Of a stretch of DNA of 64,000 nt, positions 10,592-63,980 are shown piece by piece. The stretch spans positions 29,786-93,785 of the forward strand of contig JAZDHZ010000007.1 in the NCBI GenBank assembly GCA_043805415.1, in the 5' to 3' direction. The position numbers and the translations under genes are program-made. Origin of the DNA: Candidatus Omnitrophota bacterium. GTDB lineage: Bacteria; Omnitrophota; Gorgyraeia; B26-G9. Under the pieces are notes generated by a model, which did no database searches, was not told the DNA's origin, and saw only the letters and a program-made list of their open reading frames with translations. Each line of letters opens with the position of its first letter. Position 1 is the stretch's first letter.

Positions 10592-12226
10592 TTATTCCGC
10601 GGCAAACTTCTTATTCCCCGGATAAAAGCTTAAAGCCTTTAGTTTATATGCCGCTCCTTCCGCTTTCATCTGAAAAGAAAAATAGTATTTACTTAAGTAA
10701 TAATAATAAAAAGCATAATTTTTATTCAAATTTATCGCTTTATTATAATAATCAACTGCAGCCTGAGAAAATTTGCCGGGAGATTTACGCTCCGCGCAAA
10801 GCGCGAGAAAATAATATATCGCGTCATTATTTTTCCGAAAGTTTAAAGCCTTATTCGCCTGAGCTATCGCGCTATTTACTTCCTTGTTTTCCATTGACAA
10901 ATACGCTTCATCGAGTAATGTCTGAGATTTATATTCAAGGTTAAGATAAAAAATCATTAATCCACTGAGCAAAATATAAACGCTTTTTGTGAAAAAAACC
11001 GCTGCCACGCCTCCATTGTTTTTCCTTGGCGATAAATCCGGCTTTGGTTTAAACAAGCAGGCGGTAATAATAATCCAAACATATCCGCTCTGAGTTATAA
11101 AAAAACTATAATCAAAAAAATTATGCGCCAAAAAAGCAAGCACGCCTGCCCTTAAACCAATTTCTACCGGATCGCTTGATCGTTTAAAACCGCGCGCGAA
11201 CATATACACCAAGACGCACAAAAACCCGAAAAACATAATTGTCCCGGTTTCTGCCCATAATTGCAAAAACATATTATGGCTATAAATTGTTTCATTAGCA
11301 TCCGGCTGCTTAAACCGCGGATAAACAATCCCGAAATTCCCCAGCCCTATGCCCTTTAGCGGATTTGCTTTAATAACCGCGGCTGAACTTTTCCAATAAT
11401 ATAAGCGCTGGATCAGTGAATTTTGCGGATTATTGATCTCGAGAAAATATTTTGCTCTTTGACTAAACATCGCGCCAAAAATCAGCAATAATAAAACTCC
11501 GGCGATTATCCAGTTTTTTTTATTATTTTCTTTGTCGTTTAATAAATTCCCGCTCATAAAAAATAGAGATACACCAAAAGCTAAATATGCGCCGAAAGAG
11601 CGCGTTAAATATAAACCCGCACATAAAACTAGGAAAATAATCGATAAAACCATACTTTGCTTTACTTGTTTTTGCCGATAACTTTTAATCATATATCCTC
11701 CGAGAACCGGAGCAATGGTTATTAAATACGCGGCAAGCAGATTCGGAGCAAAAAACCAGGAAATTACTCTTTTTTGTTTAAGCATTTCCCAGGCATAAAA
11801 CCCCTGATTTACAATTTGAGCATAAGAATAATGCTGATTGATATAGTCCATACCTGTAAAGAACTGATAAACCGCTCTGATACTTATAAGCGCGGCGGCG
11901 AAAAGCATTAAGTTTAGGAGTATTTTGCGTTTTTCCTGCGACTGCCAGTAAACAAAAATAAAGATCAGCAGGTACATCAGGAATTTTAAAGTCTCATTCT
12001 GGCTATTGTAGGTATTTAGGGAGAACAGGGTATTGAGCAGCAATAGGCCTGATAAACCTAAGGGATAAAAAAAGGTTTTTCGATTTATTATTATTTTCCG
12101 GTCAATAATAATATACAGCGCAAAGCAAACAGTAAAACAAATATCAAAAAAAATTCCCGCGGTTGGCCAGGCTTTTTCGCAGATAAAAACTCTTAGCGCT
12201 AACATGAAAATTATCAAATAGCTCAT
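10592..12226 (-). CDS. O-antigen ligase/polymerase (Wzy_C)-like polytopic membrane protein with C-terminal TPR repeats
   Basis: A multi-TM core is followed by TPR-like repeats (AIAQANKALNFRKNNDAIYYFLALC..., YYNKAINLNKNYAFYYYYLSKYYF). Confidence 0.5.
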   Translation of the reverse strand: MSYLIIFMLALRVFICEKAWPTAGIFFDICFTVCFALYIIIDRKIIINRKTFFYPLGLSGLLLLNTLFSLNTYNSQNETLKFLMYLLIFIFVYWQSQEKRKILLNLMLFAAALISIRAVYQFFTGMDYINQHYSYAQIVNQGFYAWEMLKQKRVISWFFAPNLLAAYLITIAPVLGGYMIKSYRQKQVKQSMVLSIIFLVLCAGLYLTRSFGAYLAFGVSLFFMSGNLLNDKENNKKNWIIAGVLLLLIFGAMFSQRAKYFLEINNPQNSLIQRLYYWKSSAAVIKANPLKGIGLGNFGIVYPRFKQPDANETIYSHNMFLQLWAETGTIMFFGFLCVLVYMFARGFKRSSDPVEIGLRAGVLAFLAHNFFDYSFFITQSGYVWIIITACLFKPKPDLSPRKNNGGVAAVFFTKSVYILLSGLMIFYLNLEYKSQTLLDEAYLSMENKEVNSAIAQANKALNFRKNNDAIYYFLALCAERKSPGKFSQAAVDYYNKAINLNKNYAFYYYYLSKYYFSFQMKAEGAAYKLKALSFYPGNKKFAAE

Positions 12227-13595: not shown

Positions 13596-15494
13596 TCAGC
13601 GCCCTTTTTGCGCCTTACAAGCAGGAGTTCCGTTGCCGCGCCGTTTCCGAACAACCCACGGCCAGACTAATAAATTCAGACATCCTATCAAAGAAACAGC
13701 GGAAATCACTACTCCAGCATAAAAAAGTACTGGCACCAAGTAAAACGAAACCGTCTGTTTTCCTGTCTGCTCGATCCGCAATGACAGCAATCCCTTGAAA
13801 TTTTCCACAACACCGGCATTTGATTTCCAATTCTTATCGAAATTCTGATTAACAACGACAATTCCCGGCTTCTTAACATCAACGTGAACAATAATTTTCC
13901 GCGGTAAAATGGAACAGCCAGTCACATGATTAAAAGAGTCAATAAAAAACGCTTCCCCTTTATACGCGGGATTAGCGACAATGAAAATTTTTGTACTCGG
14001 AGACATAAAAGCAAACCTATGCATAATAAAATAACGCGGCGTAACCGCAATAGCCCGTCCGAAAAAATCAGCCATTCCCGGATAAAAATTCGTCATGCCA
14101 AAACCTTTGCAATATAAAATAAGTTTTAAAGCCGCGCCACCACCCTCATCTCCTTTGTGCATATTCACTATCCTTACCGTAGAATTAAACGGTTGAAGTT
14201 CAGGTAATTTAAAATCAGTTCTATAATTCCTGAAATAAGCGATATTCGCGCATAACAAATCAACAAATACATAGGCTATAATTAAAATTGATATGATTCT
14301 GAATTTTTTATTAGATAGTTTTTTTTCCAATATCATAAAAAATCCTCCGCTGATAACACTGATCAAAAAAACGATTATCAGCCCATAATATTTTGCCAAA
14401 GAAGATATTGATTTAAAAAAAGGTAAATACCATAAAATCCGATGAAGATCAAGCCAGGAGTTTTGCCCAAACGATAGCACAGTAAAGATTACTAGCAACA
14501 GCAGCCAATGTTTCATTCTTCGAAACAATACAATCCCGGAAAAAAAACATAGTACAACTGGTAAAAAACCGAAATACATTGATCCCACTCCGAAGTTCTC
14601 AGGAACAAACAAACGCTGTAATAATAATGTAATCGAATTCCCATACACAACAATATCCTCATACCTTTGTCCAGTAATATTCATGTCCGCAGACAAAAGC
14701 GCCAAAATCGGCAATATCCTATAGGCAGAAAAAAGCAGGGTAAGAACCAAAACAGCAAAAAAAACAACAAAGCCGCGTTTATGAACCATAAAAGCTTGAC
14801 CGTTTCTTTTTACCATGCCAAACAACGTAATCAAAAAAAGCAATAAAAATAACAAGGGCAAAAACAAAACCGTTGTGATAAAAAATACAGCCACTGTTAG
14901 TGCCGTAAAAAATATATACTTATTATCATGCCGCGCTTTCAAAAAAAGCGCCACGACAAGCGGTAAGAATAAAATGTCTCGATTATAAATTAATCCACAC
15001 TGCTGTATAACCGGAAAAAACCCGCACATTGAAAATGCAAGTGAACAAAATACCGCGCCAAAAATATTATATTTTAAAACAAATCTCGCCAAATAAAACA
15101 TCGAAAGAGCACCGGCAAAATAGGCAAAATACCATCCCGAATTTACTCCGCAAACAATTCCCAATCCCAATACAAGTAAGAAAAAAGGGCTGTAAGAAAA
15201 ATTAAACATTGAAATATTCCAATTTAAACCTCCCTCCTCAAAGGGAACCCAGAATGGAAGCGACCGATCAGCCAGAATACTGGCGTAACTAATCAGATTA
15301 TACGAGCAAGCGCAATACCAATTATAAACCTGATTCTTGTGCGTCATTAACGGCGCCTTATTCAAAGACAATAATAGCGGTAATGTGTAAACAAAAATAC
15401 ACACTAAGATCACAAGCACTGCGGCGCAATGAGAGCGGTAAGCTCCGGACTTTTCTCTCCTAAATATTTTTCCAATCAAGCGCGACACATTCAT
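13596..15494 (-). CDS. large polytopic membrane protein (YfhO/GT-C-like?), function unknown
   Basis: A 632-aa protein with more than 12 predicted hydrophobic helices. No catalytic motif was recognised. Confidence 0.45.
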   Translation of the reverse strand: MNVSRLIGKIFRREKSGAYRSHCAAVLVILVCIFVYTLPLLLSLNKAPLMTHKNQVYNWYCACSYNLISYASILADRSLPFWVPFEEGGLNWNISMFNFSYSPFFLLVLGLGIVCGVNSGWYFAYFAGALSMFYLARFVLKYNIFGAVFCSLAFSMCGFFPVIQQCGLIYNRDILFLPLVVALFLKARHDNKYIFFTALTVAVFFITTVLFLPLLFLLLFLITLFGMVKRNGQAFMVHKRGFVVFFAVLVLTLLFSAYRILPILALLSADMNITGQRYEDIVVYGNSITLLLQRLFVPENFGVGSMYFGFLPVVLCFFSGIVLFRRMKHWLLLLVIFTVLSFGQNSWLDLHRILWYLPFFKSISSLAKYYGLIIVFLISVISGGFFMILEKKLSNKKFRIISILIIAYVFVDLLCANIAYFRNYRTDFKLPELQPFNSTVRIVNMHKGDEGGGAALKLILYCKGFGMTNFYPGMADFFGRAIAVTPRYFIMHRFAFMSPSTKIFIVANPAYKGEAFFIDSFNHVTGCSILPRKIIVHVDVKKPGIVVVNQNFDKNWKSNAGVVENFKGLLSLRIEQTGKQTVSFYLVPVLFYAGVVISAVSLIGCLNLLVWPWVVRKRRGNGTPACKAQKGR

Positions 15495-16339
15495 CCTCCC
15501 ACAGCAACCAGTTCCATGACATAGGTATCACCGCGATCACGATATTCGACATTTTTCAGAAAAAAAGGAAGAAAAAACTGCTTCAACCAGTTTTTCCCCT
15601 TCATTGCTTCAGCTGCTCTGTAATTATATTTTTCAAGATATCCTGATTTAGAAAATTCCATTCTCACAATGCCTAAAAAGGGAACTTGTGAAGATCGCCA
15701 TAAATCCAATCCTTCATCCGTGTACGCGTCTTTTTTATCAGTCGCTACCCAAAAATGAAAACATTGAAAAACGCCAACTGGTGTTTGAATGGTTTCCACC
15801 TGCGGCAACCAACGCAACTTAGCATAATCCACCGTATTTTTTTCGTCCGGAATGTCTTTATAAAATGTATCTGCCAGGATATCCGGCTGATTCAAAAATT
15901 CCTGAGGATCCACCGCGAAACTCTCGCCATCACGCGGAATAATGATTATTTTTCGCGCGGTTTCAAACAAGCTGAATAATCCTTGCGCGATATATGCCGC
16001 GGGGTCTTGAACAAAATCGTTATGATTATAGGGAAGAACTAGCGCTCTAAAAGATATTTCTCTTAATGTATCATTATACACAGCAAGTTCTATCCAAAAA
16101 TATTTATTATCCCCTATAGTTTCTTCATCAATTACAGAAATAATGTATCTATTTTTCTGCGACAAGGACTCTAAACTGATTATCCGGTATTCCGCGAATT
16201 GCCCCACATGAAACGGCAATAATCCGAAACAGCCCGCTTTCGGCTCAGACCATGATCGCGGCACCGCGAACAGCGCGCTAAAGAGAAACACCCCCAGCAG
16301 TATACACATATTTTTTTTCATATCACACATTTTCATCAA
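15491..16339 (-). CDS. secreted hypothetical protein (signal peptide)
   Basis: The N-terminus MKKNMCILLGVFLFSALFAVPRSWSEP is signal-peptide-like. It is translationally coupled to its neighbours. Confidence 0.5.
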   Translation of the reverse strand: MMKMCDMKKNMCILLGVFLFSALFAVPRSWSEPKAGCFGLLPFHVGQFAEYRIISLESLSQKNRYIISVIDEETIGDNKYFWIELAVYNDTLREISFRALVLPYNHNDFVQDPAAYIAQGLFSLFETARKIIIIPRDGESFAVDPQEFLNQPDILADTFYKDIPDEKNTVDYAKLRWLPQVETIQTPVGVFQCFHFWVATDKKDAYTDEGLDLWRSSQVPFLGIVRMEFSKSGYLEKYNYRAAEAMKGKNWLKQFFLPFFLKNVEYRDRGDTYVMELVAVGG

Positions 16340-16390
16340 TTACCCTGTCAGTATTCAAACAAAAACAACCTCAAAAAATCTTTAATAAAA

Positions 16391-17968
16391 TCATTGAAAC
16401 TTATTTGATTTAATAATGTTATCCAGATATTTATTGTTTAAATAATACCTATTTATCCTGTCTTGTTTTTTATCCGGGGTAATGAATGGCGTTATTGATA
16501 TAATAAAATTAATTATTTTCCTAATCCGGAATTCCATAAAAACGCTTCGCCACGCCCCTTGATACACCCTTAATAACACCATTTTCACTATGGGTGAGTG
16601 AGAAAAAAATTTATTAATTGATAACATACTCTTCCCTGAAGGAAGAATCCTCATTTGATTTTTACCCTTAAACCTAAAGGTAGGTATGAATTTGTCATTA
16701 TAAAACATATTTTTAAATTCTATATTCTTGTCTTTTAGCAATGCCGCATAACCCGGCATTGTCACAACAGGCTTAAAATTGGAAAACAGACCCAAATCAC
16801 AAACTCTGTTTACGTTTTTGCGCGTTAATGAGGAAGTCCTCTGCCCGGGAAACCCGTTTACGAACAAGCCTATCACCGTAATCTTATTCTTATTAAGCAT
16901 CCGGTAAATCCGTTCATAGTGGTTTATTACATCAATTTTTTTAGCCCGCATGATTTTATAATTCTTATCAAAGAGCGTTATATCACTATCTTCCAAAGAT
17001 TCTAATCCAACTGAAATAACTTTAAGCCCGGCCGGCACCGCCAATCTAATGAGCTCGGGATTATCAATGAAAACATCCGCGCGCATAGACGCTCCTAATT
17101 TAAAACCAAAATTTTTTTTAATTAAACCCTCCAAAATCGCCGCGTCCCTTTTAACGTTAGATCCAAAGTTATCGTCACTGATATGAACCTGACGAACGCC
17201 TCTTGCGTGCAATAGTTCAAATTCTTCCAGGGTTCTTTCAACAGATTTAAATCTTTGTACATTTCCAAACATTGGCCCCACACTACAAAAAGAGCACTTA
17301 TGCAAACAGCCCCTCGAGGTTTCTATGCACGCGCTCAACCCCTTCGCGCCCAATCCCAAGTCGTAATATTGCAAATCGACCTTTTCCCATCGAGGGATCG
17401 GAGACAAATCCAGATTATCAAGCAATCCCCTTTCCTCATTAAATACTATCTCCGTTTTACCGTCCTCTCGCTTCGGAGGATTACTCCCGGCATCTGTTTT
17501 TTCAAAATCACGCAAATAGGTAATGCCTTGTATCCGGCCGATACCCTTGCCGCGGTTGAAAGCGTCTAATATCTCAGGGAAGGTCTTTTCCGCTTCACCT
17601 CTGACCACAATATCCGCGCCTTTTTCAATCCATTCTTTACTATAAAAAGTTGCGTGATGGCCACCTACTATTATTTTAATCTTCGGGTTCATTATCTTAA
17701 TTAAGCGTATATTCATCTCTATATTTAATGCCACAACACTTTCCGGGCAATTCATACATACAACATCAAACATGTTTATGAGCTTAAAGTAGGATTTGGG
17801 ATCAATGTCCCGAATCGTCGCGTCAAAAATTGTAAATTCAGCGTCAGGATACAAAGATGCCAAAAGAGGATATACCGCGGAGAGCACTCTAAAAATAAAT
17901 TTAGCCGCATCATTGTGTATGGGCCAGCTCTGATAGAATTCTTTCGGTATCAACAAAAGCACTTTCAT
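16391..17968 (-). CDS. cobalamin (B12)-binding-domain radical SAM protein (class B rSAM, probable methyltransferase)
   Basis: An N-terminal B12-binding Rossmann-like domain is followed by CLHKCSFCSV (CX3CX2C) and a C-terminal rSAM TIM-barrel region. Confidence 0.85.
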   Translation of the reverse strand: MKVLLLIPKEFYQSWPIHNDAAKFIFRVLSAVYPLLASLYPDAEFTIFDATIRDIDPKSYFKLINMFDVVCMNCPESVVALNIEMNIRLIKIMNPKIKIIVGGHHATFYSKEWIEKGADIVVRGEAEKTFPEILDAFNRGKGIGRIQGITYLRDFEKTDAGSNPPKREDGKTEIVFNEERGLLDNLDLSPIPRWEKVDLQYYDLGLGAKGLSACIETSRGCLHKCSFCSVGPMFGNVQRFKSVERTLEEFELLHARGVRQVHISDDNFGSNVKRDAAILEGLIKKNFGFKLGASMRADVFIDNPELIRLAVPAGLKVISVGLESLEDSDITLFDKNYKIMRAKKIDVINHYERIYRMLNKNKITVIGLFVNGFPGQRTSSLTRKNVNRVCDLGLFSNFKPVVTMPGYAALLKDKNIEFKNMFYNDKFIPTFRFKGKNQMRILPSGKSMLSINKFFSHSPIVKMVLLRVYQGAWRSVFMEFRIRKIINFIISITPFITPDKKQDRINRYYLNNKYLDNIIKSNKFQ

Positions 17969-18475: not shown

Positions 18476-20041
18476 TTATGAATCATACCAATCCGGCTTT
18501 CTCTCGTGCATAAAACCAGTCAGGCCTTCACCTTTTCTTCGGTTAAGAATAGTATCGATGATATCCAACGACATCATCCTCATCGTATTCAGAAAAAACC
18601 ATTGATACAGTTTTCGTTTATGCCGATGCCGGGAAAAGAGCCCGCGAATTAACCAATGCGGACGGTACAGGACATACCGCTTGTTGAGTTCCATATTCAG
18701 GGCAGCAAAGTCATTGCGGGAAAGCCCCGCGCGTGAACGCATTAAAGGCGTTGTCCAATCATATTTTTTAAAATCTTTTTCTTCCAAAAGATCTTCCCGG
18801 CAAACTTCCTGATAAAAATAAGTCCCGGGGATCGGCGTTACCGGGTGAAAAGCCGGATAATCGATATCCAACTCCACAGCATACTTTACCAGTTCCAGCA
18901 TCGATTCCCTAGTATCCCACGGCAAACAGGTTAAAAAAGTACCTTGTCTAAAAACCTGGGGATATTTTTTTTTAAAAATATGGAAAACTTCTTTTACCAA
19001 ATCCTGGGAATACCCCGATTTGCGAATTGCTTCGAGGTCCTGTACACAACAGCGTTCGACTCCGATCAACGGATGAATCAGGCCAGCCTTAACCATCTTT
19101 TCAAGGATACCTTTTTTCTCGTCACGCAAAAGATAATCCGCCCTCAGAAACGCCCACCAATTCAAATCGCGGTAACGTCTCTTTAAAAGTTTTTCGCAAA
19201 ATTCATCATTCCAAGCCGGATCGACATTAAAGGTAGGGTCAGCCCAGAAAATATAGCGCACATTGTATTTTTTGTAGACAATATCAATTTCCTCGAGTGT
19301 CCTATCGACGCTCTTCGTCCGATATTGCGGAACAACCTCCAATTCCCCTTTTTCTATATCCGTTTTTACCTGTTTGCCCCAGAAAGTCCACAGGGAACAA
19401 AAACTGCAGCGATCGACACATCCCCGGGAATGTTCCAATGTAGCGCTTTGCGGCCATAAATAGCCATAAGGGGAATACTTATTCATGGGGAGCAGGTCAA
19501 AGGCCGGTAAGGGCAGTGCGTCCAAATCCTTGATTAAGGGACGCAAAGGGGTGCTGATAACCTGTCCATCACGCAGATAAGCGATACCGCTAACACGGGA
19601 CGGGTCTTCTCCTTTGAGCAAAACGCGCAACAGCTCCACCATGGTCTGTTCTCCTTCGAACCGCACGATAAAATCCAAAGGAAATTTGTTAAGACAACTC
19701 TCCGGCATCCAAGAAAAGAAATATCCCCCTGCGATCGTGATCGTTGCGGGATTGATCTCTTTAGCCAGTTCAAAAAGCTTGCCAGCTTCATGATGGTACA
19801 GCGCTTCCTCTCCCGCTCCAATGAAATCTGGACGTTCCTGCTCCAAAATAGTTTTAAGACTTTTCCATCCTATCTTTAAAGGAGCACAATCGATTATTTT
19901 TATTTCGATATCCGGGATATTGGCTCTAATATTAGCGGCTATGCAAGGAAGCCCGAGGGGAAGGAGAAAATTATCAGATTCATTGACAAAAGGCCAAATA
20001 TATCTGGGGGGTCGGATTAAAATTATCTTTTTCCGTGCCAT
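18476..20041 (-). CDS. cobalamin-binding-domain radical SAM protein (class B)
   Basis: N-terminal B12-binding domain, then CVDRCSFCSL. It is a paralog of 16391..17968. Confidence 0.85.
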   Translation of the reverse strand: MARKKIILIRPPRYIWPFVNESDNFLLPLGLPCIAANIRANIPDIEIKIIDCAPLKIGWKSLKTILEQERPDFIGAGEEALYHHEAGKLFELAKEINPATITIAGGYFFSWMPESCLNKFPLDFIVRFEGEQTMVELLRVLLKGEDPSRVSGIAYLRDGQVISTPLRPLIKDLDALPLPAFDLLPMNKYSPYGYLWPQSATLEHSRGCVDRCSFCSLWTFWGKQVKTDIEKGELEVVPQYRTKSVDRTLEEIDIVYKKYNVRYIFWADPTFNVDPAWNDEFCEKLLKRRYRDLNWWAFLRADYLLRDEKKGILEKMVKAGLIHPLIGVERCCVQDLEAIRKSGYSQDLVKEVFHIFKKKYPQVFRQGTFLTCLPWDTRESMLELVKYAVELDIDYPAFHPVTPIPGTYFYQEVCREDLLEEKDFKKYDWTTPLMRSRAGLSRNDFAALNMELNKRYVLYRPHWLIRGLFSRHRHKRKLYQWFFLNTMRMMSLDIIDTILNRRKGEGLTGFMHERKPDWYDS

Positions 20042-27735: not shown

Positions 27736-27743
27736 AAGCTTTT

Positions 27744-35567: not shown

Positions 35568-36124
35568 TTTAAAATAATCTCGTTTTGCTGAAGCATTTTC
35601 CGCGTATCTACTTCAATTAAAATAAACTTATCAATAAAAATTTTCCCTTCCATTTTCATTGTTTTCTGTTCCCAACAGGAATTCTTTGAATCCGCCCAAA
35701 ATCTTATTTTTGCTTTACCTTTGCGCAATTTCCAAAAAGGTTCCGCGCTAGGACTGCGGTATTCCCAGCGGCCCTGGCCATGCGGCAAATACCAGCGCTG
35801 CTCGGAAAATACATAATTATAATAATGCTTGCCTTGCGCGTCAGTAAGCTTAATATATATAAATGGACAATATTTACGCCATTGGTGATAGAGGCTTATA
35901 TAGAGCTGATAATATCCATCCTCAGGGATATCAATATTTAAAGTCTGAACAGCATTACTCTTGTCTGTGGCAATTGCCTGCCGGTCATCAAGCAAAACTT
36001 TCTCCCAATCACCGGTTGAATTTTTAATTAAAAAAGTAAGCGGCTGCTCAGCGGCATAAACCAAATCCGCTGCCGCGAATATAAACAAAACAATAAATCC
36101 GAATTTAATTATCCGCTTAAACAT
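35564..36124 (-). CDS. secreted hypothetical protein
   Basis: The signal-anchor MFKRIIKFGFIVLFIFAAADLVYA is present. The start was trimmed to this Met. Confidence 0.45.
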   Translation of the reverse strand: MFKRIIKFGFIVLFIFAAADLVYAAEQPLTFLIKNSTGDWEKVLLDDRQAIATDKSNAVQTLNIDIPEDGYYQLYISLYHQWRKYCPFIYIKLTDAQGKHYYNYVFSEQRWYLPHGQGRWEYRSPSAEPFWKLRKGKAKIRFWADSKNSCWEQKTMKMEGKIFIDKFILIEVDTRKMLQQNEIILK

Positions 36125-53042: not shown

Positions 53043-53060
53043 GTTATATTATCCTATTTA

Positions 53061-56752: not shown

Positions 56753-59700
56753 AATTCCTGCGCGTCGCCGGGCAGAAAAATCCTCGCTTTATTTGTTTCG
56801 ATTTTCTGCGCTGAAATGATCCGGGCATTGATCAGCTTATCGGCATTCTGGACCTGCGGCCTTAAGCCTGATCCACTATCCGCGGAAAAATCAAAAATCA
56901 GTTCAGGAAATTCACTATTCTTTGTTTTTCCTCCCAGGACTTTTATTTGTCTGGCGTTTAAATTTTTAATCTCAGCTTGCTGCCAATCTTTTAAATTAAA
57001 AAACTTGCCTGTTTCATTGGCAATCTGCCATTTTTTATAAACCGGGCAAAGCATGATGCTTGATTTAGTCTGTTCGATTTCGATTTTCGCGTCAACTGCC
57101 ATCCGGATATTCCATTCCAGCAGATAATCCTGATCCAGTTTTATCCGCCAAATCTGGGAAAGCGGAATATTATGCCAGGTGCTTTTCAGCTCAAGCTCAT
57201 GCTGATTATGCTTAAGCACTTCCCATTTTGCTTTGGAAGAGTCATACCATAAGCCAAACACGCGTACCGAAGTATTTAAGCCGATACTCTGAGTGATTTC
57301 CTGATTATCCCAAAAGAGTTTTACTCCTTCGCCATGATACACTGCCTGCAATCTGCCTTGTTTGATACTCTTTTTACTGTCTGATTTTCTTTTATCGATT
57401 CTCGCTTTTACGGCCTGGGAAAATGTTTTGCCTTTAAGATAGTTTTTCAGCTTTAGCCAGAATAAAGCCAGTTTCAATAACTTATATTCTAAGCCGGTCA
57501 AAGACTGGATCTTTTTATGCATATGAATATTCCGGGCAAGGTCGTCACAGCCTTTAAAACAGCCGACTTTTACATTCGAGTCATTGCCGATAAATGAAAA
57601 AAATACATCCTGCTTGGGCAAAGACATTGCCCGTTTTCGGAATTCCTGCTGTTTGCGGCTATTCCAGATCTGAACAAAATCATGAGCATAAATATTTCCC
57701 ACGGGGATGCGATGGGCTTTTAAGCAAAAATTCACATTGCCGTCAGCCCGGATTCTGGCAAACAGCCAACCCATATAACAAGGGATTTGATTTAAAATAT
57801 CATTATCATATTGAGCGATTTTCGCCTCATAATTCTCCACCCGGCGCATAAACTGCTCAAACTGTAGGATTTTGATTTTATTTTTTAAATCCCCTGTTTC
57901 TAAACGCTGTTTGATTTTATAACAATCATTGATTACGCTTTTTTGCTGCTCATCATTGAGCGTCAGAGCATCCGTAGCATCGGGAATAGTATCAATAACC
58001 GTAAATTCCAAAGAATCACAGCCGGTTTCCAGGGCGAAATCAAGCATTTGATTTATTTCCTGATAATTCTGATTGGAAATCACATTATAAATATTTACCC
58101 ACGGCTTTTGCTGTTTAAGCGAATTAAGCAGTTTAAGCGTACCTTTAAGCTGATAAAACATTGCCTCGGATTTATTGGGATGGGTCAGATGATAGGTTTT
58201 TGCTGTTCCGGCCCAGATACTGACCACCAGATTATCCACGCCAATATCAACCAATTGCTTTACCATATCCTCGCTGACTAAAGTAAAATTTGTATTAATA
58301 TAACAGCGCAAACCCAGCGCCTTAGCATGTTCCAGAATTTTCATAATCTGCGGATGCATAAACGGCTCGCCGCCTCCGGCAAAATAGATTTCCCGGGTGC
58401 CCAGACGCTTAAGCTGATCAATGGTTTTTTTAACAACTTCCATAGGTAAAGTCTGTTGTTTAACCTGCTCAGTGATCTTTTTATCTTTTAATAAAGGCGA
58501 ATTGCACCAGCAGCCGATGCAGTCATTATTACAATCATTGGTAAGGTCTATTTGCGCGCAAAACGGCCCCTTATAAGCCATATTACCGTCGATAACTCCG
58601 ATAATATCCAGATAATAATCTTTCAGTTTTTTCAAATTAAGATTTTTGATGATTTTAGCGCAAACCGCGAGCAGCCCTTTATCGCTTAGCTGCTCTTTAA
58701 TAAATTTTAAAGGCGCTTTTGTTTTATATTCCTGAATCGCCTGAGACTGTTTATTTTGCCTTAAAGTAATCTCCAAATCAAAATAATCATAAACTCCGGG
58801 CAAAAACCTGTCTATTTTTAATCTGCGCATCTGGACAATCCGTCCCTTGATCTTTTTATCCGTATTCTGGATCTGGGGATAAGTATTATCTTTGTACAGT
58901 CTAAGAGTTTTTAGCTCAATCTCCGGCAGAGCATTTTTGTATTTATTCTCACTGCCTGCCAAAAGCCGGGAACTATTGGGATTATATAATTCAATTTCTT
59001 CCCATTCCGTTATTTTTGGGAAAAAGCCTGTACCCAGGTTATCCTTCCACATCGTATATTTACTGTCCAGCAGCAGCCCGGCTTTGTATTCCATGATCTC
59101 CATATCCTGATCAATCCGCATCTGGCTGGACCATTTGATAATATCATTATCTTCAATAATGATCAGCCATTGCTGGCGTACCGGATGCTGATCCCATTTC
59201 AGCCAGACCTTAATCATATTCTCAGCGGTTTTTTCCAGTTTCCAATGCGCCAGAGAAGAATCAATCCAGCTTTGGCCGCAATGCATGGAAGTATTCAGGC
59301 CCACGTCTTTGCTGATTTCCTGATTTTTCCAAAACAGCCTTACCTTGCCTTCGCTAAAAGCAATTTTTGTATTTCCATTGGTAATTGTCTCTTCAATAAG
59401 CCAAAGTTTTCTGCTAAAATACTGCCTGACACGCAAAGGCAAAAACATCAGCCGCCTTAAAATAAATAAGCATATTTTAAAAAGCGCGGCCAGCAGCCCT
59501 TTGGTTTTATAATAAACTATTAATTTTTGCTTTAGGCTCCGCGGCTGAACCGGCAGCAGCTTTTTAATTTTCAGCTGACAGTGTTTTTCCCATTGCTTAT
59601 ACGCGTTATTTTTTGCCTGTTTAAGCTGTTTCGAGGACAAGTCCTGAGTGCGGATAACGCAGCTGTGATTTCCGTCAAAATTATCCCAGTTCTTATCCAG

Positions 59701-60918
59701 AATATAACCCTGCTTATCCATTTGCTCATAAAACCGGGTTCCGGGAAAAGGCGTGGCCAGAGAAAACTGCACGGAAGTCGGATTTAATTTTTTGGCATAT
59801 TCAATAGTATCGCTGACTGTCTGGCTGGTTTCACCCGGCAGCCCAAAGGTAAAAGTCAAATGCGTCCTGATCCCTAAATATTTCGTGTACTTAACCATTT
59901 CCTCGACTTTTTTCAAATCACTGCCTTTATTAATATTATCCAGCAATTGCTGGGAGGAAGATTCCACGCCGTATTTGACGGAAAACAAGCCGGCTTTACG
60001 CATTCTTTCCAGCAGCGGCTCATCCATAAGCTCAGCTCTGGCCATAATCGCCCAAGGCACCTGGAGATTTCTTTTTTCCAGCTCATCGCAAAACGCGAAG
60101 ATCCGCTGTTTGCCGATATTCCAGGTATCATCATCAAAATAAATTGATTTAAATCCCAGCTGTTTAACCAAATATTCCATTTCATCAACAACATCAACCA
60201 CATCTCTGACGCGGTACGAACCGCCTTTATACATTACCTGCGGCCATAAACAAAAACTGCATTTAAACGGACAGCCGCGGCTGGCCCACATTGAGGCGCA
60301 AGGCACAGGAATATCCCCGGGAGCATCATTGTAGGACTTGAGCAGCAGTTTTTTTCGCCGCGGCCAGGGCAAAGAATCCAGATCCTTAATCAAAGGCCGA
60401 GGCGGATTTTTCATGGCTTGATTATTTTGTTTATAAATCAACCCTGAGACATCAGCTAAGCTGCTTTTATCCCTAAGTTTTTGGCAGAGCTCAAGTAAAG
60501 TAGCCTCATACTCGCCGTACATGAGATAATCAATAAAAGCGGTTTTTTCTAAAAATTCCGGATTTTCCAGCTGCGCTTCCGGGCCGCACAAGGCTATGGG
60601 CAGATGACCTTTATGCCGGATAAGCATTTTCAGGTCATGCGCCAAAGTAACAGTTGATGTTTCCGCTACCATTAACTGCGGCTTAAGCGCGATTATTTTC
60701 TGGAAAAACTCATTTTTCGAGAGTTTCTCGGCAATCGCGTCAATAATTTCCACTTCAAAACCGTTTTTTTCCAGCAAAGCAGCGGCATAAGCCAGATAAA
60801 ACGGAAACGGCAGATAATTATTTTCCGTATGATCTTTTATATGCGGCCAGCGCGAACCGGCTCTGACTCCCCAGCGATTGCCTTTTTTCCAGGGTAAATT
60901 AACTAAAACAATCCTCAT
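56719..60918 (-). CDS. giant 1399-aa multidomain protein: B12-binding rSAM (aa 1-~470) - hydrophobic helix - novel Trp-rich domain (aa ~515-700) - rSAM/SPASM (aa ~770-1130; CNNDCIGCWC) - novel Trp-rich domain copy 2 (aa ~1165-1399)
   Basis: The first rSAM motif is CPFKCSFCLW. The second rSAM with SPASM reads CYMGWLFARIRADGNVNFC...CFKGCDD. Two internal repeats carry LFW-NQEI-GLNTS-W.DSS conserved positions. Confidence 0.85.
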   Translation of the reverse strand: MRIVLVNLPWKKGNRWGVRAGSRWPHIKDHTENNYLPFPFYLAYAAALLEKNGFEVEIIDAIAEKLSKNEFFQKIIALKPQLMVAETSTVTLAHDLKMLIRHKGHLPIALCGPEAQLENPEFLEKTAFIDYLMYGEYEATLLELCQKLRDKSSLADVSGLIYKQNNQAMKNPPRPLIKDLDSLPWPRRKKLLLKSYNDAPGDIPVPCASMWASRGCPFKCSFCLWPQVMYKGGSYRVRDVVDVVDEMEYLVKQLGFKSIYFDDDTWNIGKQRIFAFCDELEKRNLQVPWAIMARAELMDEPLLERMRKAGLFSVKYGVESSSQQLLDNINKGSDLKKVEEMVKYTKYLGIRTHLTFTFGLPGETSQTVSDTIEYAKKLNPTSVQFSLATPFPGTRFYEQMDKQGYILDKNWDNFDGNHSCVIRTQDLSSKQLKQAKNNAYKQWEKHCQLKIKKLLPVQPRSLKQKLIVYYKTKGLLAALFKICLFILRRLMFLPLRVRQYFSRKLWLIEETITNGNTKIAFSEGKVRLFWKNQEISKDVGLNTSMHCGQSWIDSSLAHWKLEKTAENMIKVWLKWDQHPVRQQWLIIIEDNDIIKWSSQMRIDQDMEIMEYKAGLLLDSKYTMWKDNLGTGFFPKITEWEEIELYNPNSSRLLAGSENKYKNALPEIELKTLRLYKDNTYPQIQNTDKKIKGRIVQMRRLKIDRFLPGVYDYFDLEITLRQNKQSQAIQEYKTKAPLKFIKEQLSDKGLLAVCAKIIKNLNLKKLKDYYLDIIGVIDGNMAYKGPFCAQIDLTNDCNNDCIGCWCNSPLLKDKKITEQVKQQTLPMEVVKKTIDQLKRLGTREIYFAGGGEPFMHPQIMKILEHAKALGLRCYINTNFTLVSEDMVKQLVDIGVDNLVVSIWAGTAKTYHLTHPNKSEAMFYQLKGTLKLLNSLKQQKPWVNIYNVISNQNYQEINQMLDFALETGCDSLEFTVIDTIPDATDALTLNDEQQKSVINDCYKIKQRLETGDLKNKIKILQFEQFMRRVENYEAKIAQYDNDILNQIPCYMGWLFARIRADGNVNFCLKAHRIPVGNIYAHDFVQIWNSRKQQEFRKRAMSLPKQDVFFSFIGNDSNVKVGCFKGCDDLARNIHMHKKIQSLTGLEYKLLKLALFWLKLKNYLKGKTFSQAVKARIDKRKSDSKKSIKQGRLQAVYHGEGVKLFWDNQEITQSIGLNTSVRVFGLWYDSSKAKWEVLKHNQHELELKSTWHNIPLSQIWRIKLDQDYLLEWNIRMAVDAKIEIEQTKSSIMLCPVYKKWQIANETGKFFNLKDWQQAEIKNLNARQIKVLGGKTKNSEFPELIFDFSADSGSGLRPQVQNADKLINARIISAQKIETNKARIFLPGDAQEFCLKLNLKGSK

Positions 60919-61031
60919 AAATAAAACCTCTCTTTTTCAAATTCTCTGCTGCTAAATAATAGTTTAAAGCTTTAATCTCTTTAGCTTTATTTTTTCTATC
61001 CCATTTTTATTATCGCTATTCTTCTTATCAA

Positions 61032-63980
61032 TCATAAAAACTCTTCCAGATGATACAGGGAAAACTGATCCCAGACATCCCTAAGCACCTGATGCGTATC
61101 GCAATGCTGACAATCATCACCAAATAAAGGAGTGCCGTTTAGGAATTTTTCCTGTTTATGAGCACTAAGATATTTAGCTTGATACCGGAAGCGTTCATAT
61201 GCTTCGGAGTTCCAGATTTCTTTAAATGATTTATCTTTTAAATACCCTACGGTTCTTAAATGACAGCAAAAGCTCACGTCTCCGGCAGCGGGAATAAGGC
61301 TGAAATTCCAGCCCAAAGCGCAGCCTTTTTCCAGAAAAACATCTTTGGACCATGACCCTGTATCCGGCTCGAGATTTTTTAACTGAAATTGGGTAGTATC
61401 AAGCAGCTCGATTTCTTTACCTTTAAGCATTTGTTTAATTTCAGGTAAAGCCTGCTTAATCGCCTCAATATCCTCTGGTTTTAGTTTTAAAGCCTGAATA
61501 TTCTGATCAAGCCTGACCAGATAAAACCGGATCACATTTGCGCCAACGGCAATATCATTTTCCGCCATCTCCACCAGCTCATGGGCGTTCATTGTATGAA
61601 TAACATGAGTCATAATCAAACGCGGCTTTTTTGCTTTGCTCTGTTTTTTATAATCAGATAAATATTTAAGATTTTCCAGGATCGTATCAAACGCTTTCTC
61701 ATTCTGCTTGGTATTTATTTGGGCAAAGGTTTTTGCCAAACCAGCTGGCAGACTGCAGAAAATTTCGCTTACCCCATAATCAACCGCCTGTTTAGCCACT
61801 GTTTTATTCAAAAGAATGCCATTAGTAAAAAACGATACTTCAATTCCCTTTTCCCGGCCGTATTTAACCATATCAAAAAATCGCTCATGCAATAGCGGCT
61901 CGCCGTCTCCTTGAAAAATCATCAGGTCAGTGTAAAGTTCACTTAGATCATCAGCGATTTTTTTAAAGCCTTCAAAGCTGAGTTTCCGGTCAAGAAATTC
62001 CTGGGGATGTTTTATGCTCGGCGTATGCACCCAGCAATGCACGCAATTAGCATTACAGCGGTGATACGGATCAATAACCACGATCTGCGGTCCAATAAAA
62101 GCGTGTTCGCAGATCACGCCCAATAAACGCAATAACTGGCGTTCATTATCTGTTTCCACCTGAGTATAAACCGCAGTAATCAGATCAAACAGCTTATCAT
62201 CAGCCAGAACAAATTCAATATTACCGATACGGCTGGCGATTTTTTTCAAGGCACCAAGATACTCAATAAAACTACGCCGCAATTTTTTTAAGGGGAAGAT
62301 ATTTAAAGTCAAAGACCTCAGGTCAATCGGTTCCCCGATTTCCTTAGCCGCAAATTGAAGAATTTCATTAAGTTTAAAGAAATTATATCTGGACACTCCG
62401 ATTGTTATCAGAGGAGTTCTTCCCTGTTTTTTCAGCAAACGCAGATTGTTTATTTTTGTCTCAAACTCTTTTACTCCGCTAATCCGGTCATGGAGAATCG
62501 GGTTGTCCGCGTATATATAGCTTGATTGCGGCTCAAAACGCAATGGCTGGGCATCCCGCCTATAATCATCGATACAGCTATTGTCATCACTGAGATATAT
62601 ACCGCCTTTAAATTCACGAAATTCTTTGGCCGCGTATTTACTGGTCTGGCTGGTTTCAATTACCTGGGCCTGCAAAGCCCGGCCGCGGATAATCCGATCC
62701 GAATTCTGAATCAAAGAGATGTATTCCGGGTCAATGCAAAACATCACTGCCGGCAAACCATTATCCGCGTAAGTACCGAAAGTTTCTCCGTCCCGGTTAG
62801 CGATAATATCATGCCAGGACCCGAACTGTTCAGGAAAAACACCTTGCTCAAAAGAATTAAACCAGCGCTGATACGCGCCGCTTAGGATAATCCCGGTTTT
62901 GCGCTGCTTAATCTCCACTGCCTGTTTAAACTCAATGCGCGCGTGCCATTCAATAGTATGATCGTCTTTTAGCGTAACCATCCATTTCTCAACCGCGGGA
63001 AAAGGGCTAAAATCAATTACTATCTCCATCTTCCTATCTGATATCTTGGTTACATCCCAATTAATTTTTCCGGAATCATACCAATAGCCGTCGGAATACA
63101 GCGCTGTATGCAAACCAATATCCGTAGTTATTTCCCTGCTTTTCCAAAAAATCCTTAATCTGCCTTTATCCGGCAATAGCTTAATATTTTTATTTTCCAA
63201 ACCGCTGCGCGTAATCATAGCCTGCATTTTCTGATTAAGCTGCTGTTCGATTAAATCAGGCTGGGGAATAAGCGTGATTTCCAGAGCAAAATTATTTTTT
63301 TCTTGCGAACCATTTACTTTCACTGCCTGGAGATAACGCGCCTGATTATTCCGGTCTGAATTCTGGACAAGCAGATAATCGCAGCTTTGCTCTTTAGCTC
63401 TGAGCATTATCCCGGGAATTTTCCCCTGGTTTTTCAAACCAACCGCGCCCTCAGGTTTATCTTTAATTACCCGCTGCCAATCAGCGAATTCTTGGCTGAA
63501 AATTCCGCTTTCATATCCGCCAAACCATTGTTCATATTCCGGGCTCAAGATTATTCCTGCTGCCTGATTTTCAATAAGCGTGTTTTTATCCAGAATATCC
63601 GTGGAAATTTTCCACTCAATCAGTTGCTGATTATTAAGCATTATCTGCCAGCACTGGCGGATGGCTAAAGGCCGCCAGTCAATTTCAATGTATAAAGACT
63701 GGGAATTGATCCGCTCAACCTGCCAAATACACTTACTGGAATCAAACCATTGTCCGGACACAAACAAAGCTGAATGCAGTCCAGCGCCTTTGCTCAACTG
63801 TTTATCCTGCCAAAACAACTGAATTGACTGGTCTTTAAGCTCAAGCTTTAGATCAGCTTCAATGATCTGTCTTGACCGCAGAGCCTGGCTGATGCTTTCC
63901 TGCTTTATTTTGCTGAACAAATCCCGATCCAAGCAAAACAGGATCTCTGATTTTAACAACCGGTATCTGGCCTTAGCCAT
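61032..63980 (-). CDS. 982-aa protein: two tandem copies of the novel Trp-rich domain (aa ~50-225 and ~272-445) fused to a C-terminal rSAM/SPASM domain
   Basis: The repeats begin QLFWQDKQLSKGAGLHSALF...WFDSSKCIW and RIFWKSREITTDIGLHTALY...WYDSGKINW. The rSAM motif is CNANCVHCW. The SPASM region (CALGWNFSLIPAAGDVSFCC) is paralogous to that of 56719..60918. Confidence 0.85.
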   Translation of the reverse strand: MAKARYRLLKSEILFCLDRDLFSKIKQESISQALRSRQIIEADLKLELKDQSIQLFWQDKQLSKGAGLHSALFVSGQWFDSSKCIWQVERINSQSLYIEIDWRPLAIRQCWQIMLNNQQLIEWKISTDILDKNTLIENQAAGIILSPEYEQWFGGYESGIFSQEFADWQRVIKDKPEGAVGLKNQGKIPGIMLRAKEQSCDYLLVQNSDRNNQARYLQAVKVNGSQEKNNFALEITLIPQPDLIEQQLNQKMQAMITRSGLENKNIKLLPDKGRLRIFWKSREITTDIGLHTALYSDGYWYDSGKINWDVTKISDRKMEIVIDFSPFPAVEKWMVTLKDDHTIEWHARIEFKQAVEIKQRKTGIILSGAYQRWFNSFEQGVFPEQFGSWHDIIANRDGETFGTYADNGLPAVMFCIDPEYISLIQNSDRIIRGRALQAQVIETSQTSKYAAKEFREFKGGIYLSDDNSCIDDYRRDAQPLRFEPQSSYIYADNPILHDRISGVKEFETKINNLRLLKKQGRTPLITIGVSRYNFFKLNEILQFAAKEIGEPIDLRSLTLNIFPLKKLRRSFIEYLGALKKIASRIGNIEFVLADDKLFDLITAVYTQVETDNERQLLRLLGVICEHAFIGPQIVVIDPYHRCNANCVHCWVHTPSIKHPQEFLDRKLSFEGFKKIADDLSELYTDLMIFQGDGEPLLHERFFDMVKYGREKGIEVSFFTNGILLNKTVAKQAVDYGVSEIFCSLPAGLAKTFAQINTKQNEKAFDTILENLKYLSDYKKQSKAKKPRLIMTHVIHTMNAHELVEMAENDIAVGANVIRFYLVRLDQNIQALKLKPEDIEAIKQALPEIKQMLKGKEIELLDTTQFQLKNLEPDTGSWSKDVFLEKGCALGWNFSLIPAAGDVSFCCHLRTVGYLKDKSFKEIWNSEAYERFRYQAKYLSAHKQEKFLNGTPLFGDDCQHCDTHQVLRDVWDQFSLYHLEEFL

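Follow-up and report, generated by a model that had tools for sequence, protein, structure and literature searches.

In the 4-amino-4-deoxy-L-arabinose (Ara4N, Arn) pathway, ArnD tailors a lipid-linked sugar before it is flipped, and in the Wzm/Wzt O-antigen pathway (with WecA and WaaL) a C-terminal extension of Wzt recognises the glycan, as in E. coli O9a, Klebsiella O12 and Aquifex. A small number of antibiotic pathways tailor sugars with radical S-adenosylmethionine (rSAM) enzymes, as a rule one to three per pathway; AprD4, GenK, BtrN (with the DegT-family BtrS), NeoN and BlsE tailor aminoglycoside or nucleoside antibiotics. To our knowledge, no envelope polysaccharide pathway is built around rSAM tailoring. 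Here we analyse a 64,000-nt stretch of DNA (the window) from a Candidatus Omnitrophota bacterium (contig JAZDHZ010000007.1), in which positions 10592-63980 (the study region) hold a dense array of rSAM genes among glycan-building genes. The region probably covers the greater part of a ~60-70 kb locus, conserved in Omnitrophota, for the biosynthesis of a cell-surface glycan; it lies beside the division and cell wall (dcw) genes. More tentatively, and at somewhat less than even confidence, its rSAM proteins may form an undescribed carbohydrate-modifying class that acts on a polymer as well as on polyprenyl-phosphate sugars. They would be targeted by a lineage-specific module common to Wzt-like ATPases and GT-C glycosyltransferases, and would yield a surface glycan rich in radical-derived features (C-methyl, deoxy, keto/amino, epimerised, cyclitol) that no characterised pathway makes. 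The parts overlap with Arn, Gtr/YfhO and Wzm/Wzt systems and, judged by sequence family thresholds, belong to none of their named equivalogs.

The study region contains 36 open reading frames (ORFs) of at least 150 aa, and the whole window 42, nearly all on the minus strand. A Pfam scan of every ORF in the region found 14 proteins (39%) with 15 rSAM domains, scoring 44-132 bits against a PF04055 cut-off of 29.5 bits. The CX3CX2C motif was present in 13 of the 14, and the remaining, methylthiotransferase-like protein has CX4CX2C. Under an assumed background of 3% rSAM per gene, described as generous, the binomial probability of finding at least 14 among 36 is ~1e-12, and the density is thus far beyond chance. 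A first-pass annotation of the sequence had counted at least 17 rSAM enzymes here, nearly every second gene. Its gene-by-gene calls hold in the profile searches but its totals do not. Relatives L084 and L086 (see below) carry 4-5 more small rSAM genes past the position of the window end, so the whole cluster may exceed 17 rSAM genes.

A cobalamin (B12)-binding domain was recognised in six rSAM proteins, named here and below by the start coordinates of their genes: 16391, 18476, 28717, 38154, 55073 and the N-terminus of 56719. These are the six that had been singled out by name, from an estimated total of about nine that proved too high. PF02310 scores above its cut-off (32.1 bits) in 16391, 18476, 28717 and 56719 (40-62 bits) and below it in 38154 (28.1) and 55073 (27.4), both of which align lengthwise with B12-rSAM NCBIfam models. 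The SPASM domain PF13186 was above cut-off in five proteins, namely 22591, 32865, 46787 and the two giant proteins 56719 and 61032. Three further proteins once placed in the SPASM/twitch group (21462, 26749 and 27744) gave no Pfam SPASM match and have Cys-rich C-terminal tails with partial SPASM/twitch motifs. The remaining rSAM protein, 20266, is methylthiotransferase-like as first described, combining UPF0004 with an rSAM domain and keeping the N-terminal Cys 20/56/85. Because it has no TRAM domain and scores 202 bits against TIGR00089 (cut-off 251), it resembles the MiaB/RimO methylthiotransferases but is not a member.

The gene order of the region is kept in three other Omnitrophota genomes, over 24-48 kb each and at 36-84% amino acid identity. 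These are L084/L085, the closest relative (55-84%), L086 with L018 (one 206-kb contig, ~75-123 kb), and L088 with L013 (one 708-kb contig). L013 shares the junction found in the window, with Wzy_C followed by mraW, ftsI, murE and murF; the Wzy_C gene is thus the last of the cluster, adjoining the dcw genes, and sits in the same place beside mraW in both genomes. The low-coordinate end of the window carries mraZ, mraW, ftsI, murE, murF and mraY, which marks the region as chromosomal DNA. GC content (33-46%) and strand bias are uniform along the window and GC skew is negative throughout. The rSAM genes alternate with glycan genes and are translationally coupled to them. Adjacent genes overlap by 4-65 nt; the 4-, 8-, 17- and 23-nt overlaps reported earlier follow from the ORF coordinates, together with longer ones. 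The rSAM density could alternatively be an artefact of chimeric metagenome assembly, or reflect a hypervariable island of unrelated cargo. The window does come from a metagenome-assembled genome (MAG), its murE is split, apparently by a frameshift, and hypervariable loci with glycosyltransferase cargo have been reported in Omnitrophota (bioRxiv 10.64898/2026.06.07.730766). However, the genes are syntenic in the relatives rather than scattered, and since the same order occurs in three independent assemblies from other samples, one of them with the identical dcw junction, the cluster is not chimeric. With uniform composition and overlapping genes throughout, an artefact is extremely improbable.

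Table 1. Features of the study region, in window coordinates. L numbers denote compared loci; TM, transmembrane; PMT_2 GT-C, GT-C glycosyltransferase of the PMT_2 family.
Feature	Position	Strand	Evidence
Wzy_C/O-antigen-ligase-like membrane protein, 544 aa, ~8 TM helices	10592-12226	-	PF04932, 60.9 bits
GT2 glycosyltransferase (GT2_a)	12223-13215	-	PF00535, PF13641; 49% identical homologue at same position in L013
Candidate YfhO-like GT-C (TM632)	13596-15494	-	~10 TM helices and C-terminal beta domain
unk282, conserved secreted/anchored protein	15491-16339	-	N-terminal hydrophobic segment; no family match
B12-binding rSAM protein 1	16391-17968	-	PF02310 43 bits, PF04055 55 bits; CLHKCSFC motif
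B12-binding rSAM protein 2, BchE-like	18476-20041	-	PF02310, PF04055; BchE 185 bits (cut-off 481)
Methylthiotransferase-like rSAM without TRAM	20266-21465	-	PF00919 (UPF0004), PF04055; CX4CX2C
rSAM with Cys-rich SPASM-like tail, 383 aa	21462-22613	-	PF04055 71 bits; Cys 340/347/350/354
rSAM-SPASM, 319 aa	22591-23550	-	PF04055, PF13186
S-adenosylmethionine (SAM) methyltransferase fused to Dol-P-Man-synthase-like GT2	23556-24782	-	PF08241, PF00535; GT2 closest to 5mlz, E 2.2e-9
AsnB-type glutamine amidotransferase	24813-26735	-	PF00733, PF13537; passes TIGR01536 cut-off
Small rSAM (rSAM_328), twitch/SPASM-like tail	26749-27735	-	PF04055 87 bits, Cys motifs; tandem paralogue of 27744-28769 (DNA direct repeat D1)
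Small rSAM (rSAM_341), partner of B12-rSAM::GT2 fusion	27744-28769	-	PF04055 90 bits
B12-rSAM::GT2 fusion	28717-30996	-	PF02310, PF04055, PF00535
TM564, polytopic membrane protein, ~9 TM helices and C-terminal domain	31008-32702	-	No family match
rSAM-SPASM, 340 aa	32865-33887	+	PF13186 65 bits, PF04055 57 bits
PMT_2 GT-C 1	34005-35567	-	PF13231 35.5 bits; ~10 TM helices
unk205, small anchored/secreted protein	35564-36181	-	No family match; syntenic after DUF362 in L018, L038
DUF362 protein	36117-37226	-	PF04015 103 bits; twin-arginine-like signal (RREFVK)
Generic GT2 (GT2_b)	37223-38149	-	PF00535 107 bits
B12-type rSAM protein 3, HpnJ-like	38154-39620	-	PF04055 44.5 bits; HpnJ 136 bits
GT4-type (GT-B) glycosyltransferase (GT4_a)	39617-40708	-	PF13692, PF00534
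PMT_2 GT-C 2	40715-42112	-	PF13231 26.5 bits, barely over the 26.1 cut-off
DegT/DnrJ/EryC1 sugar aminotransferase	42090-43337	-	PF01041 234 bits; ArnB best NCBIfam match, 152 bits, below cut-off
PMT_2 GT-C 3	43330-44847	-	PF13231 45.8 bits; tandem paralogue of 44831-46240 (DNA repeats D2, D3)
PMT_2 GT-C 4	44831-46240	-	PF13231 54.1 bits
SAM-dependent methyltransferase, 185 aa	46233-46790	-	PF08241
rSAM-SPASM, 355 aa	46787-47854	-	PF04055, PF13186
PMT_2 GT-C 5	47855-49555	-	PF13231 33.5 bits; syntenic in L084, L086, L088
unk284, membrane-anchored, one TM helix	49556-50410	-	No family match; syntenic in L084, L086, L088
NodU-like O-carbamoyltransferase	50394-52085	-	PF02543, PF16861; NodU 109 bits
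ArnC/GtrB-like polyprenyl-phosphate glycosyltransferase, predicted (GT2_c)	52086-53042	-	PF00535
GT4 glycosyltransferase (GT4_b)	53061-54215	-	PF00534, PF13439
Structured non-coding element	54392-54528	-	Inside the 860-nt gap 54216-55072
B12-type rSAM protein 4, C-terminal TM helix	55073-56752	-	PF04055 87 bits
Giant double rSAM, 1399 aa	56719-60918	-	Pfam, module profile; two rSAM domains
Giant rSAM-SPASM, cut by window end	61032-63998	-	Pfam, module profile; open frame

The relatives also reveal what lies upstream of the giant rSAM genes. In all three, the giant gene is preceded by one for an ABC ATPase of 1340-1350 aa, and in L088 this ATPase gene in turn follows genes for an ABC-2 permease, an FAD oxidoreductase and a WecA-like phosphoglycosyltransferase. 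The nearest NCBIfam models are Wzm/KpsM for the permease, TagH/Wzt for the ATPase and WecA for the phosphoglycosyltransferase. L088 therefore holds permease, Wzt-type ATPase and initiating phosphoglycosyltransferase together, and L084 and L086 hold the ATPase, in each case directly upstream of the syntenic genes. As in the Wzm/Wzt pathway, the cluster of the relatives starts with WecA-like, Wzm-like and Wzt/TagH-like proteins, the ATPase has a C-terminal extension, and a Wzy_C-family protein closes the cluster. By contrast, the extension is ~1100 aa long with five galactose-mutarotase-like modules, where the described Wzt proteins have one small jelly-roll domain. The module is, moreover, common to rSAM proteins and GT-Cs, one protein (P0154, below) joins the ATPase to rSAM domains, and the exporter genes lie outside the window. 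The locus had been likened at first to an Ara4N-type system working through polyprenol phosphate; such a branch is present, but the wider frame seen in the relatives is that of a Wzm/Wzt polymer locus.

The module was recognised in the two giant proteins. In the 1399-aa protein, an HpnJ-like B12-rSAM domain (aa 19-443, nt 59590-60864) and an rSAM-SPASM domain (aa 790-1098, nt 57625-58551) leave much of the chain over, and full-length homologues are 56-85% identical. The second giant is cut by the window end, its frame staying open to 63998; it has an rSAM-SPASM region at nt 61173-62069 and a 77% identical homologue in L084 of 1183 aa, the full length. BLASTP showed repeated similarity between the several hundred family-less residues of each giant and the L088 Wzt-like ATPase. 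A hidden Markov model (HMM) built from these repeats describes a module of ~210 aa with five copies in the ATPase, three in the 1183-aa rSAM protein (two of them inside the window, nt 63213-63863 and 62619-63200) and two in the 1399-aa protein (aa 512-724, nt 58747-59385; aa 1196-1379, nt 56782-57333). Its fold is galactose-mutarotase-like in a confident AlphaFold2 (AF2) model, with a predicted local distance difference test (pLDDT) of 91 and a predicted TM-score (pTM) of 0.88.

The module is rare, with 637 representatives among 1.84 billion proteins in a profile search. Among the 150 top-ranking of these 637, 147 were newly retrieved, and their domains were surveyed. An ABC ATPase domain was present in 79 and an rSAM domain in 17, with a PMT_2 GT-C domain in nine of the remainder. 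Tandem arrays hold 2-9 copies of the module, and every surveyed protein with a source name is from Omnitrophota. P0154 (1900 aa, from an Omnitrophica MAG, 303-kb contig) unites a Wzt-like ABC ATPase with module copies and with both a B12-rSAM and an rSAM-SPASM domain, and is in effect the exporter ATPase and the 1399-aa enzyme of the window in one chain. Among the longest arrays, P0308 (2244 aa, source name polysaccharide/polyol-phosphate ABC ATPase) has eight copies and P0336 (1881 aa, a hypothetical Omnitrophota protein) has nine. In the two GT-C fusions that could be placed, the modules lie C-terminal to the transmembrane (TM) domain, so that, by analogy with ArnT/PMT topology, the module would occur on both cytoplasmic and periplasmic enzymes. 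This would fit binding of something that crosses the membrane. The conserved residues are Trp, Tyr, Gln and Asn, with no invariant His or Glu, and we therefore read the module as a probable binding, not catalytic, domain. That the giants share this repeated module with a Wzt ATPase points to action on a polymer and not just on polyprenyl-phosphate monosaccharides.

The genes of the polyprenyl-phosphate branch were assessed one by one. The 52086 protein aligns with ArnC (PDB 9hwj, E 1.6e-58, residues 6-311 against 9-311) and with GtrB (5ekp, E 6e-36), and a pair of C-terminal TM helices is predicted near residues 240 and 272. Its ArnC equivalog score of 218 bits does not reach the cut-off of 529; on these alignments it is a predicted polyprenyl-phosphate glycosyltransferase. 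Of three Dpm1/ArnC-like synthases proposed previously, this one stands as ArnC-like, and two dolichol-phosphate-mannose (Dol-P-Man)-synthase-like GT2 domains were found in the fusion proteins 23556 and 28717. The protein 37223 was rejected as ArnC/Dpm1-like and is a generic GT2: its best PDB matches, chondroitin synthase and similar, cover the N-terminal ~100 aa alone. The DegT/ArnB aminotransferase was identified correctly, ArnB being the best family match of 42090, and Pfam likewise supports the GT2, GT4, AsnB, carbamoyltransferase and methyltransferase genes listed with it. The AsnB-type protein scores 490 bits against the XrtA/PEP-CTERM exopolysaccharide (EPS) amidotransferase model and resembles amidotransferases of EPS loci.

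At least five ArnT/PMT-like GT-Cs had been expected, and five PMT_2 proteins were found (26.5-54.1 bits against a PF13231 cut-off of 26.1; 7-11 predicted TM helices). A sixth GT-C, YfhO-like, is predicted at 13596. It has no Pfam match of its own, but homologues at 42-43% identity carry PF09586 (YfhO). Its AF2 model is of moderate quality (pTM 0.73, pLDDT 67.6), and the top 12 Foldseek PDB matches of the model are all GT-Cs, at E 1e-3 to 0.1 and TM-scores of 0.30-0.39; a profile of the protein gave no match among PDB sequences. The branch shares with the Arn, Gtr (GtrA/GtrB/GtrV) and CsbB-GtcA-YfhO systems an ArnC/GtrB-like glycosyltransferase with C-terminal TM helices, a DegT/ArnB-family aminotransferase, ArnT/PMT-type GT-Cs with a candidate YfhO-type one and, in principle, tailoring of the lipid-linked sugar before flipping. 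It differs in that no equivalents of ArnA, ArnD or ArnE/F and no GtrA-type flippase were found in the window, in having a predicted six or more GT-Cs rather than one, and in the fusion of two polyprenyl-phosphate-sugar synthase domains to a B12-type rSAM or a methyltransferase. Its 14 rSAM proteins have no counterpart in those systems, and the ArnB and ArnC equivalog cut-offs are not reached.

An rSAM and a glycosyltransferase domain are joined directly in the fusion protein 28717. Its B12-binding rSAM part spans residues ~28-466 (nt 29599-30915) and its Dol-P-Man-synthase-like GT2 residues ~496-724 (nt 28825-29511); PDB matches are the archaeal Dol-P-Man synthase 5mlz (E 2.5e-25) and AprD4 (E 1.4e-21). 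This architecture was found in ~65 protein clusters across Omnitrophota (54-62% identity), with Elusimicrobiota homologues at 41-44%, and P0026 is a variant with an added methyltransferase domain. For gene context we compared 57 loci from species-representative genomes, each 12 kb or longer and surrounding a fusion homologue, and recognised glycan genes by similarity to window proteins. At least two rSAM genes were present in 39 of the 57 and at least one glycan gene in 38. Homologues of rSAM_341 (41-62% identity) adjoin the fusion, or its unfused B12-rSAM counterpart, in Omnitrophota and Elusimicrobiota loci, and the small Elusimicrobiota set consists of GT2, rSAM, fusion, rSAM_341 and methyltransferase. 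In loci with a Woesearchaeota or other archaeal label, genes for B12-rSAM, AsnB, Dol-P-Man-synthase-like GT2 and GT-C stay together. Conservation of both the fusion and the gene order supports a coupling of the rSAM enzymes to glycan synthesis.

Three of the archaeal loci (L053, L056 and L058, from MAGs labelled Woesearchaeota or Methanosarcinales) encode a GT4 that is 52-54% identical to the window protein 53061. This identity exceeds that of most other window-protein matches there, and the gene adjoins those for B12-rSAM, AsnB, GT2 and GT-C. The gene set suggests either transfer between bacteria and DPANN-type archaea or mis-binned contigs.

These genes raise the possibility that the rSAM proteins act solely on polyprenyl-phosphate monosaccharides, in an extended Ara4N-type pathway where the module is a scaffold or binds lipid-linked sugars. 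DegT, the six predicted GT-Cs and the three GT2 domains discussed above (one ArnC-like, two Dol-P-Man-synthase-like) would all suit such a pathway, the fusion puts a radical enzyme directly on a polyprenyl-phosphate-sugar synthase, and the archaeal loci keep B12-rSAM, AsnB, GT2 and GT-C without the giants. However, arrays of 2-9 modules, mainly on the ATPase of a polysaccharide exporter, better suit multivalent binding of a polymer, and the GT4s, the generic GT2, Wzy_C and, in the relatives, WecA, Wzm and Wzt also indicate a polymer. We consider an exclusively monosaccharide-directed pathway unlikely and favour action at both levels, with lipid-linked monosaccharides argued from the B12-rSAM::GT2 fusion and the ArnD precedent, and a polymer from the tandem modules that the giants have in common with the exporter ATPase and the periplasmic transferases.

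To assess which reactions the B12-type proteins might perform, we compared them with curated families and solved structures. HpnJ was the best curated match for three of them, in full-length alignments (fusion, 185 bits; 38154, 136 bits; N-terminus of the 1399-aa giant, 269.5 bits). HpnJ membership was rejected for all three, as the scores are under half of the equivalog cut-off of 577.6 bits (TIGR03471) and no hopanoid genes occur in the window or the relatives. BchE was best for two (16391, at 83 bits and far under cut-off, and 18476). The last, 55073, is nearest to rSAM_ocin_1, a C-methyltransferase subfamily for ribosomally synthesised and post-translationally modified peptides (RiPPs), at 156 bits and below cut-off; no B12-type protein is closest to a characterised C-methyltransferase. 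Among solved structures, both B12-type domains searched (fusion and 1399-aa giant) come closest to AprD4, a diol dehydratase working on an aminoglycoside sugar. AprD4 has the fold of class B enzymes, but a review places it among 'unrelated enzymes', apart from the B12-dependent ones (PMC12931638). A mid-ranking structural match, PDB 9ccb, is a methyl-coenzyme M reductase (MCR) glutamine C-methyltransferase and was set aside as uninformative about sugars. The SPASM-type proteins match many maturase and cofactor models weakly, with SkfB, Tes, BlsE and viperin among their PDB matches.

C-methylation, put forward at first for the class-B enzymes, is therefore just one option, since five of the six B12-type proteins are nearest to HpnJ or BchE and none to a characterised C-methyltransferase. 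By analogy with AprD4, GenK, BtrN/BtrS, NeoN and BlsE, and with what is proposed for HpnJ, plausible reactions also include deoxygenation, oxidation feeding DegT transamination, epimerisation, decarboxylation and ring contraction to a cyclitol. The locus resembles the antibiotic pathways in the likely use of radical enzymes on sugars, in AprD4 as closest structure and BlsE among the weak SPASM matches, and in a DegT gene beside candidate rSAM dehydrogenases, as BtrS with BtrN. It differs in being a chromosomal envelope locus with exporter, GT-Cs, ligase and at least 14 rSAM proteins, whereas those are actinomycete or Bacillus clusters for small secreted antibiotics with one to three rSAM genes; identities are also low (E 1e-21 at best).

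The HpnJ matches could instead mean that the rSAM proteins modify a lipid or glycolipid head group, forming a cyclitol as HpnJ and calditol synthase may do, or methylating or cross-linking chains, to make a specialised membrane glycolipid. HpnJ and calditol synthase have been proposed to ring-contract a lipid-linked hexose to a cyclitol (PMC13459092). HpnJ acts after the GT2 HpnI in the hopanoid pathway (HpnI/HpnK/HpnJ), and this pairing of a GT2 with a B12-type rSAM is repeated here; there are weaker matches to a ladderane-lipid B12-rSAM model and to the tetraether synthase Tes. Against this, all of the scores are far under the family cut-offs, and neither the window nor the syntenic loci contain genes for squalene-hopene cyclase, HpnH/G/I/K, fatty-acid or isoprenoid synthesis; tetraether lipid genes are likewise missing from the neighbourhood. 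The GT2 paired with the rSAM here belongs to the Dol-P-Man-synthase type, whose substrate is polyprenyl phosphate, and the common module combines the fold of a carbohydrate enzyme with a place on a polysaccharide-type exporter. A lipid product is thus improbable, and we retain a glycan as the likely substrate.

SPASM enzymes are best known as peptide maturases. The rSAM proteins might accordingly install thioether or C-C cross-links or C-methyl groups on an S-layer protein, pilin or RiPP that is also O-glycosylated by the PMT_2 enzymes, a protein O-mannosyltransferase family. Besides the usual role of SPASM enzymes, the rSAM_ocin_1 match of 55073 and a true peptide-maturase-type rSAM gene at 8952-10454 could be cited for this view. 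However, in blastn and tblastx comparison with six syntenic loci, neither a small ORF nor a precursor-like gene proved to be conserved in the cluster gaps, where the one conserved segment looks like a structured RNA instead of a peptide. Nor did we detect a RiPP recognition element, a protease or a peptide exporter. The fusion partners of the rSAM domains are GT2 and a polysaccharide-exporter ATPase, not peptide-binding domains, and the SPASM proteins of the cluster score just 60-125 bits against peptide-maturase models, well under cut-offs. Protein or peptide maturation thus has only a slim chance of being the main role, and carbohydrate modification remains our preferred reading.

From the domain identities, synteny, fusions and the common module and its fold, we infer glycan binding, an order of steps, their topology and the specific reactions as follows. 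The locus would make a surface glycan by an ABC-transporter-type polysaccharide pathway with several ArnC/ArnT-type branches and at least 14 rSAM enzymes for tailoring that needs no oxygen. A WecA-like enzyme would start the chain on undecaprenyl phosphate and Wzm/Wzt would export it (genes seen only in the syntenic relatives), with the GT4 and GT2 enzymes building the chain in the cytoplasm. Tailoring there may comprise amination by DegT, amidation by AsnB, O-carbamoylation by the NodU-like protein, methylation by SAM methyltransferases and the rSAM reactions, the giants being held on the glycan by their tandem modules. The ArnC-like GT2 and the two Dol-P-Man-synthase-like domains would load sugars onto polyprenyl phosphate, and fusion of a GT2 to B12-rSAM or methyltransferase suggests that the lipid-linked sugar is modified before flipping, as by ArnD. 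In the periplasm, five PMT_2 and one YfhO-like GT-C would decorate the exported glycan or its acceptor, which may be LPS, a protein or another polymer, and the Wzy_C protein may ligate or polymerise the product.

Several points weigh against this scheme. The Wzm, Wzt and WecA-like genes are outside the window and are placed here by synteny with the relatives, and no GtrA/ArnEF-type flippase was found in the window. All of the rSAM proteins stay below every curated NCBIfam cut-off, which precludes assigning a reaction; by this measure they fall outside the described families of radical enzymes. A galactose-mutarotase-like fold is also seen in proteins without known sugar binding (the YidC P1 domain and PBCV-1 P19), and sugar binding by a module without invariant His or Glu is argued from fold and context. 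The periplasmic placing of the GT-C-fused modules follows general GT-C topology.

The first-pass annotation knew of no characterised pathway with this architecture, and our literature searches found no description of one. No paper was found linking rSAM with Omnitrophica and glycosyltransferase, with cobalamin and polysaccharide, or with Elusimicrobia and glycosyltransferase; matches for rSAM with Wzt and O-antigen were coincidental mentions in Xanthomonas and Burkholderia papers. What appears new is the tailoring layer and the module on an envelope glycan locus, the rSAM density and the fusions being absent from the literature found. If the proposal is correct, it contributes a new module for glycan recognition and a family of enzymes that modify sugars without oxygen, and implies unusual surface chemistry in Omnitrophota, a widespread and almost wholly uncultured phylum. 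Some Omnitrophota have been reported to be predatory (PMC12419801), and for these the surface probably governs contact with other cells. The smaller conserved sets in Elusimicrobiota and DPANN-type archaea suggest that the chemistry extends beyond one phylum, and the B12-rSAM::GT2 and Wzt::rSAM fusions are concrete starting points for biochemistry.

TM564 may be a seventh GT-C: it aligns with the PMT_2 profile at 78% hhalign probability, over 84 columns only, and a 47% identical homologue lies beside the homologue of the fusion's B12-rSAM in L019. The unk282 gene is always upstream of the YfhO-like gene and is syntenic in L018 and L038; unk284 is always between the carbamoyltransferase and GT-C 5 and has a 29% identical homologue in a Woesearchaeota locus. 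Five ORFs and the uncharacterised stretches of both giants had no Pfam or NCBIfam match, even with the E limit relaxed to 1. Among the rSAM genes, 38154 is 62-65% identical to its counterparts in L018 and L038, 46787 has positional counterparts in L084 and L088 (49-68% identity), and 55073 is syntenic in L084, L086 and L088. The sole plus-strand gene of the cluster, 32865, has a copy in L018 that is likewise opposite to its neighbours. Two tandem duplications lie within the cluster as DNA repeats of 72-74% identity, one of the two small rSAM genes (26749-28769) and one of two PMT_2 GT-C genes (43330-46240). The DUF362 protein (start MKKFTRREFVK) is 66-70% identical in L018 and L038, among the best-conserved of the central block of the cluster, and its signal suggests export in folded form to the periplasm, possibly with a cofactor.

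The structured element upstream of GT4_b is 92% identical over 137 nt to the corresponding gap of L084, where the flanking proteins are 73-84% identical. One hairpin has five fully compensatory base-pair changes, a second hairpin of 9 bp is unchanged save one loop base, and the folding z-score is -3.6 (RNAfold). In L084, its first ~60 nt are repeated upstream of a small rSAM gene. The element has no Rfam match, nor was anything credible found in the 860-nt gap; it is a candidate cis-regulatory RNA in the 5' leader of the GT4_b sub-operon. Across the whole window no Rfam family reached gathering thresholds, indicating no cobalamin or SAM riboswitch, and there are no tRNA genes.

Two observations concern the low-coordinate end of the window. 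Just outside the study region, a fifteenth rSAM-SPASM gene of peptide-maturase type (8952-10454, plus strand) is transcribed divergently from mraZ, with a 27-aa ORF (8707-8790) upstream. Its product is closest to the PapB, nif11, QhpD and SCIFF maturases (235 bits, cut-off 340), and the interval from Wzy_C to mraW in L013 yielded no homologue. The murE gene (minus strand, 3357-4839) is broken into two ORFs, 4399-4839 for the N-terminal part and 3357-4337, just past the GTNGKTT P-loop. The L013 homologue is intact at 491 aa, and the split in the window reflects either a genuine disruption of an essential gene or a frameshift introduced by mistake in sequencing or assembly.

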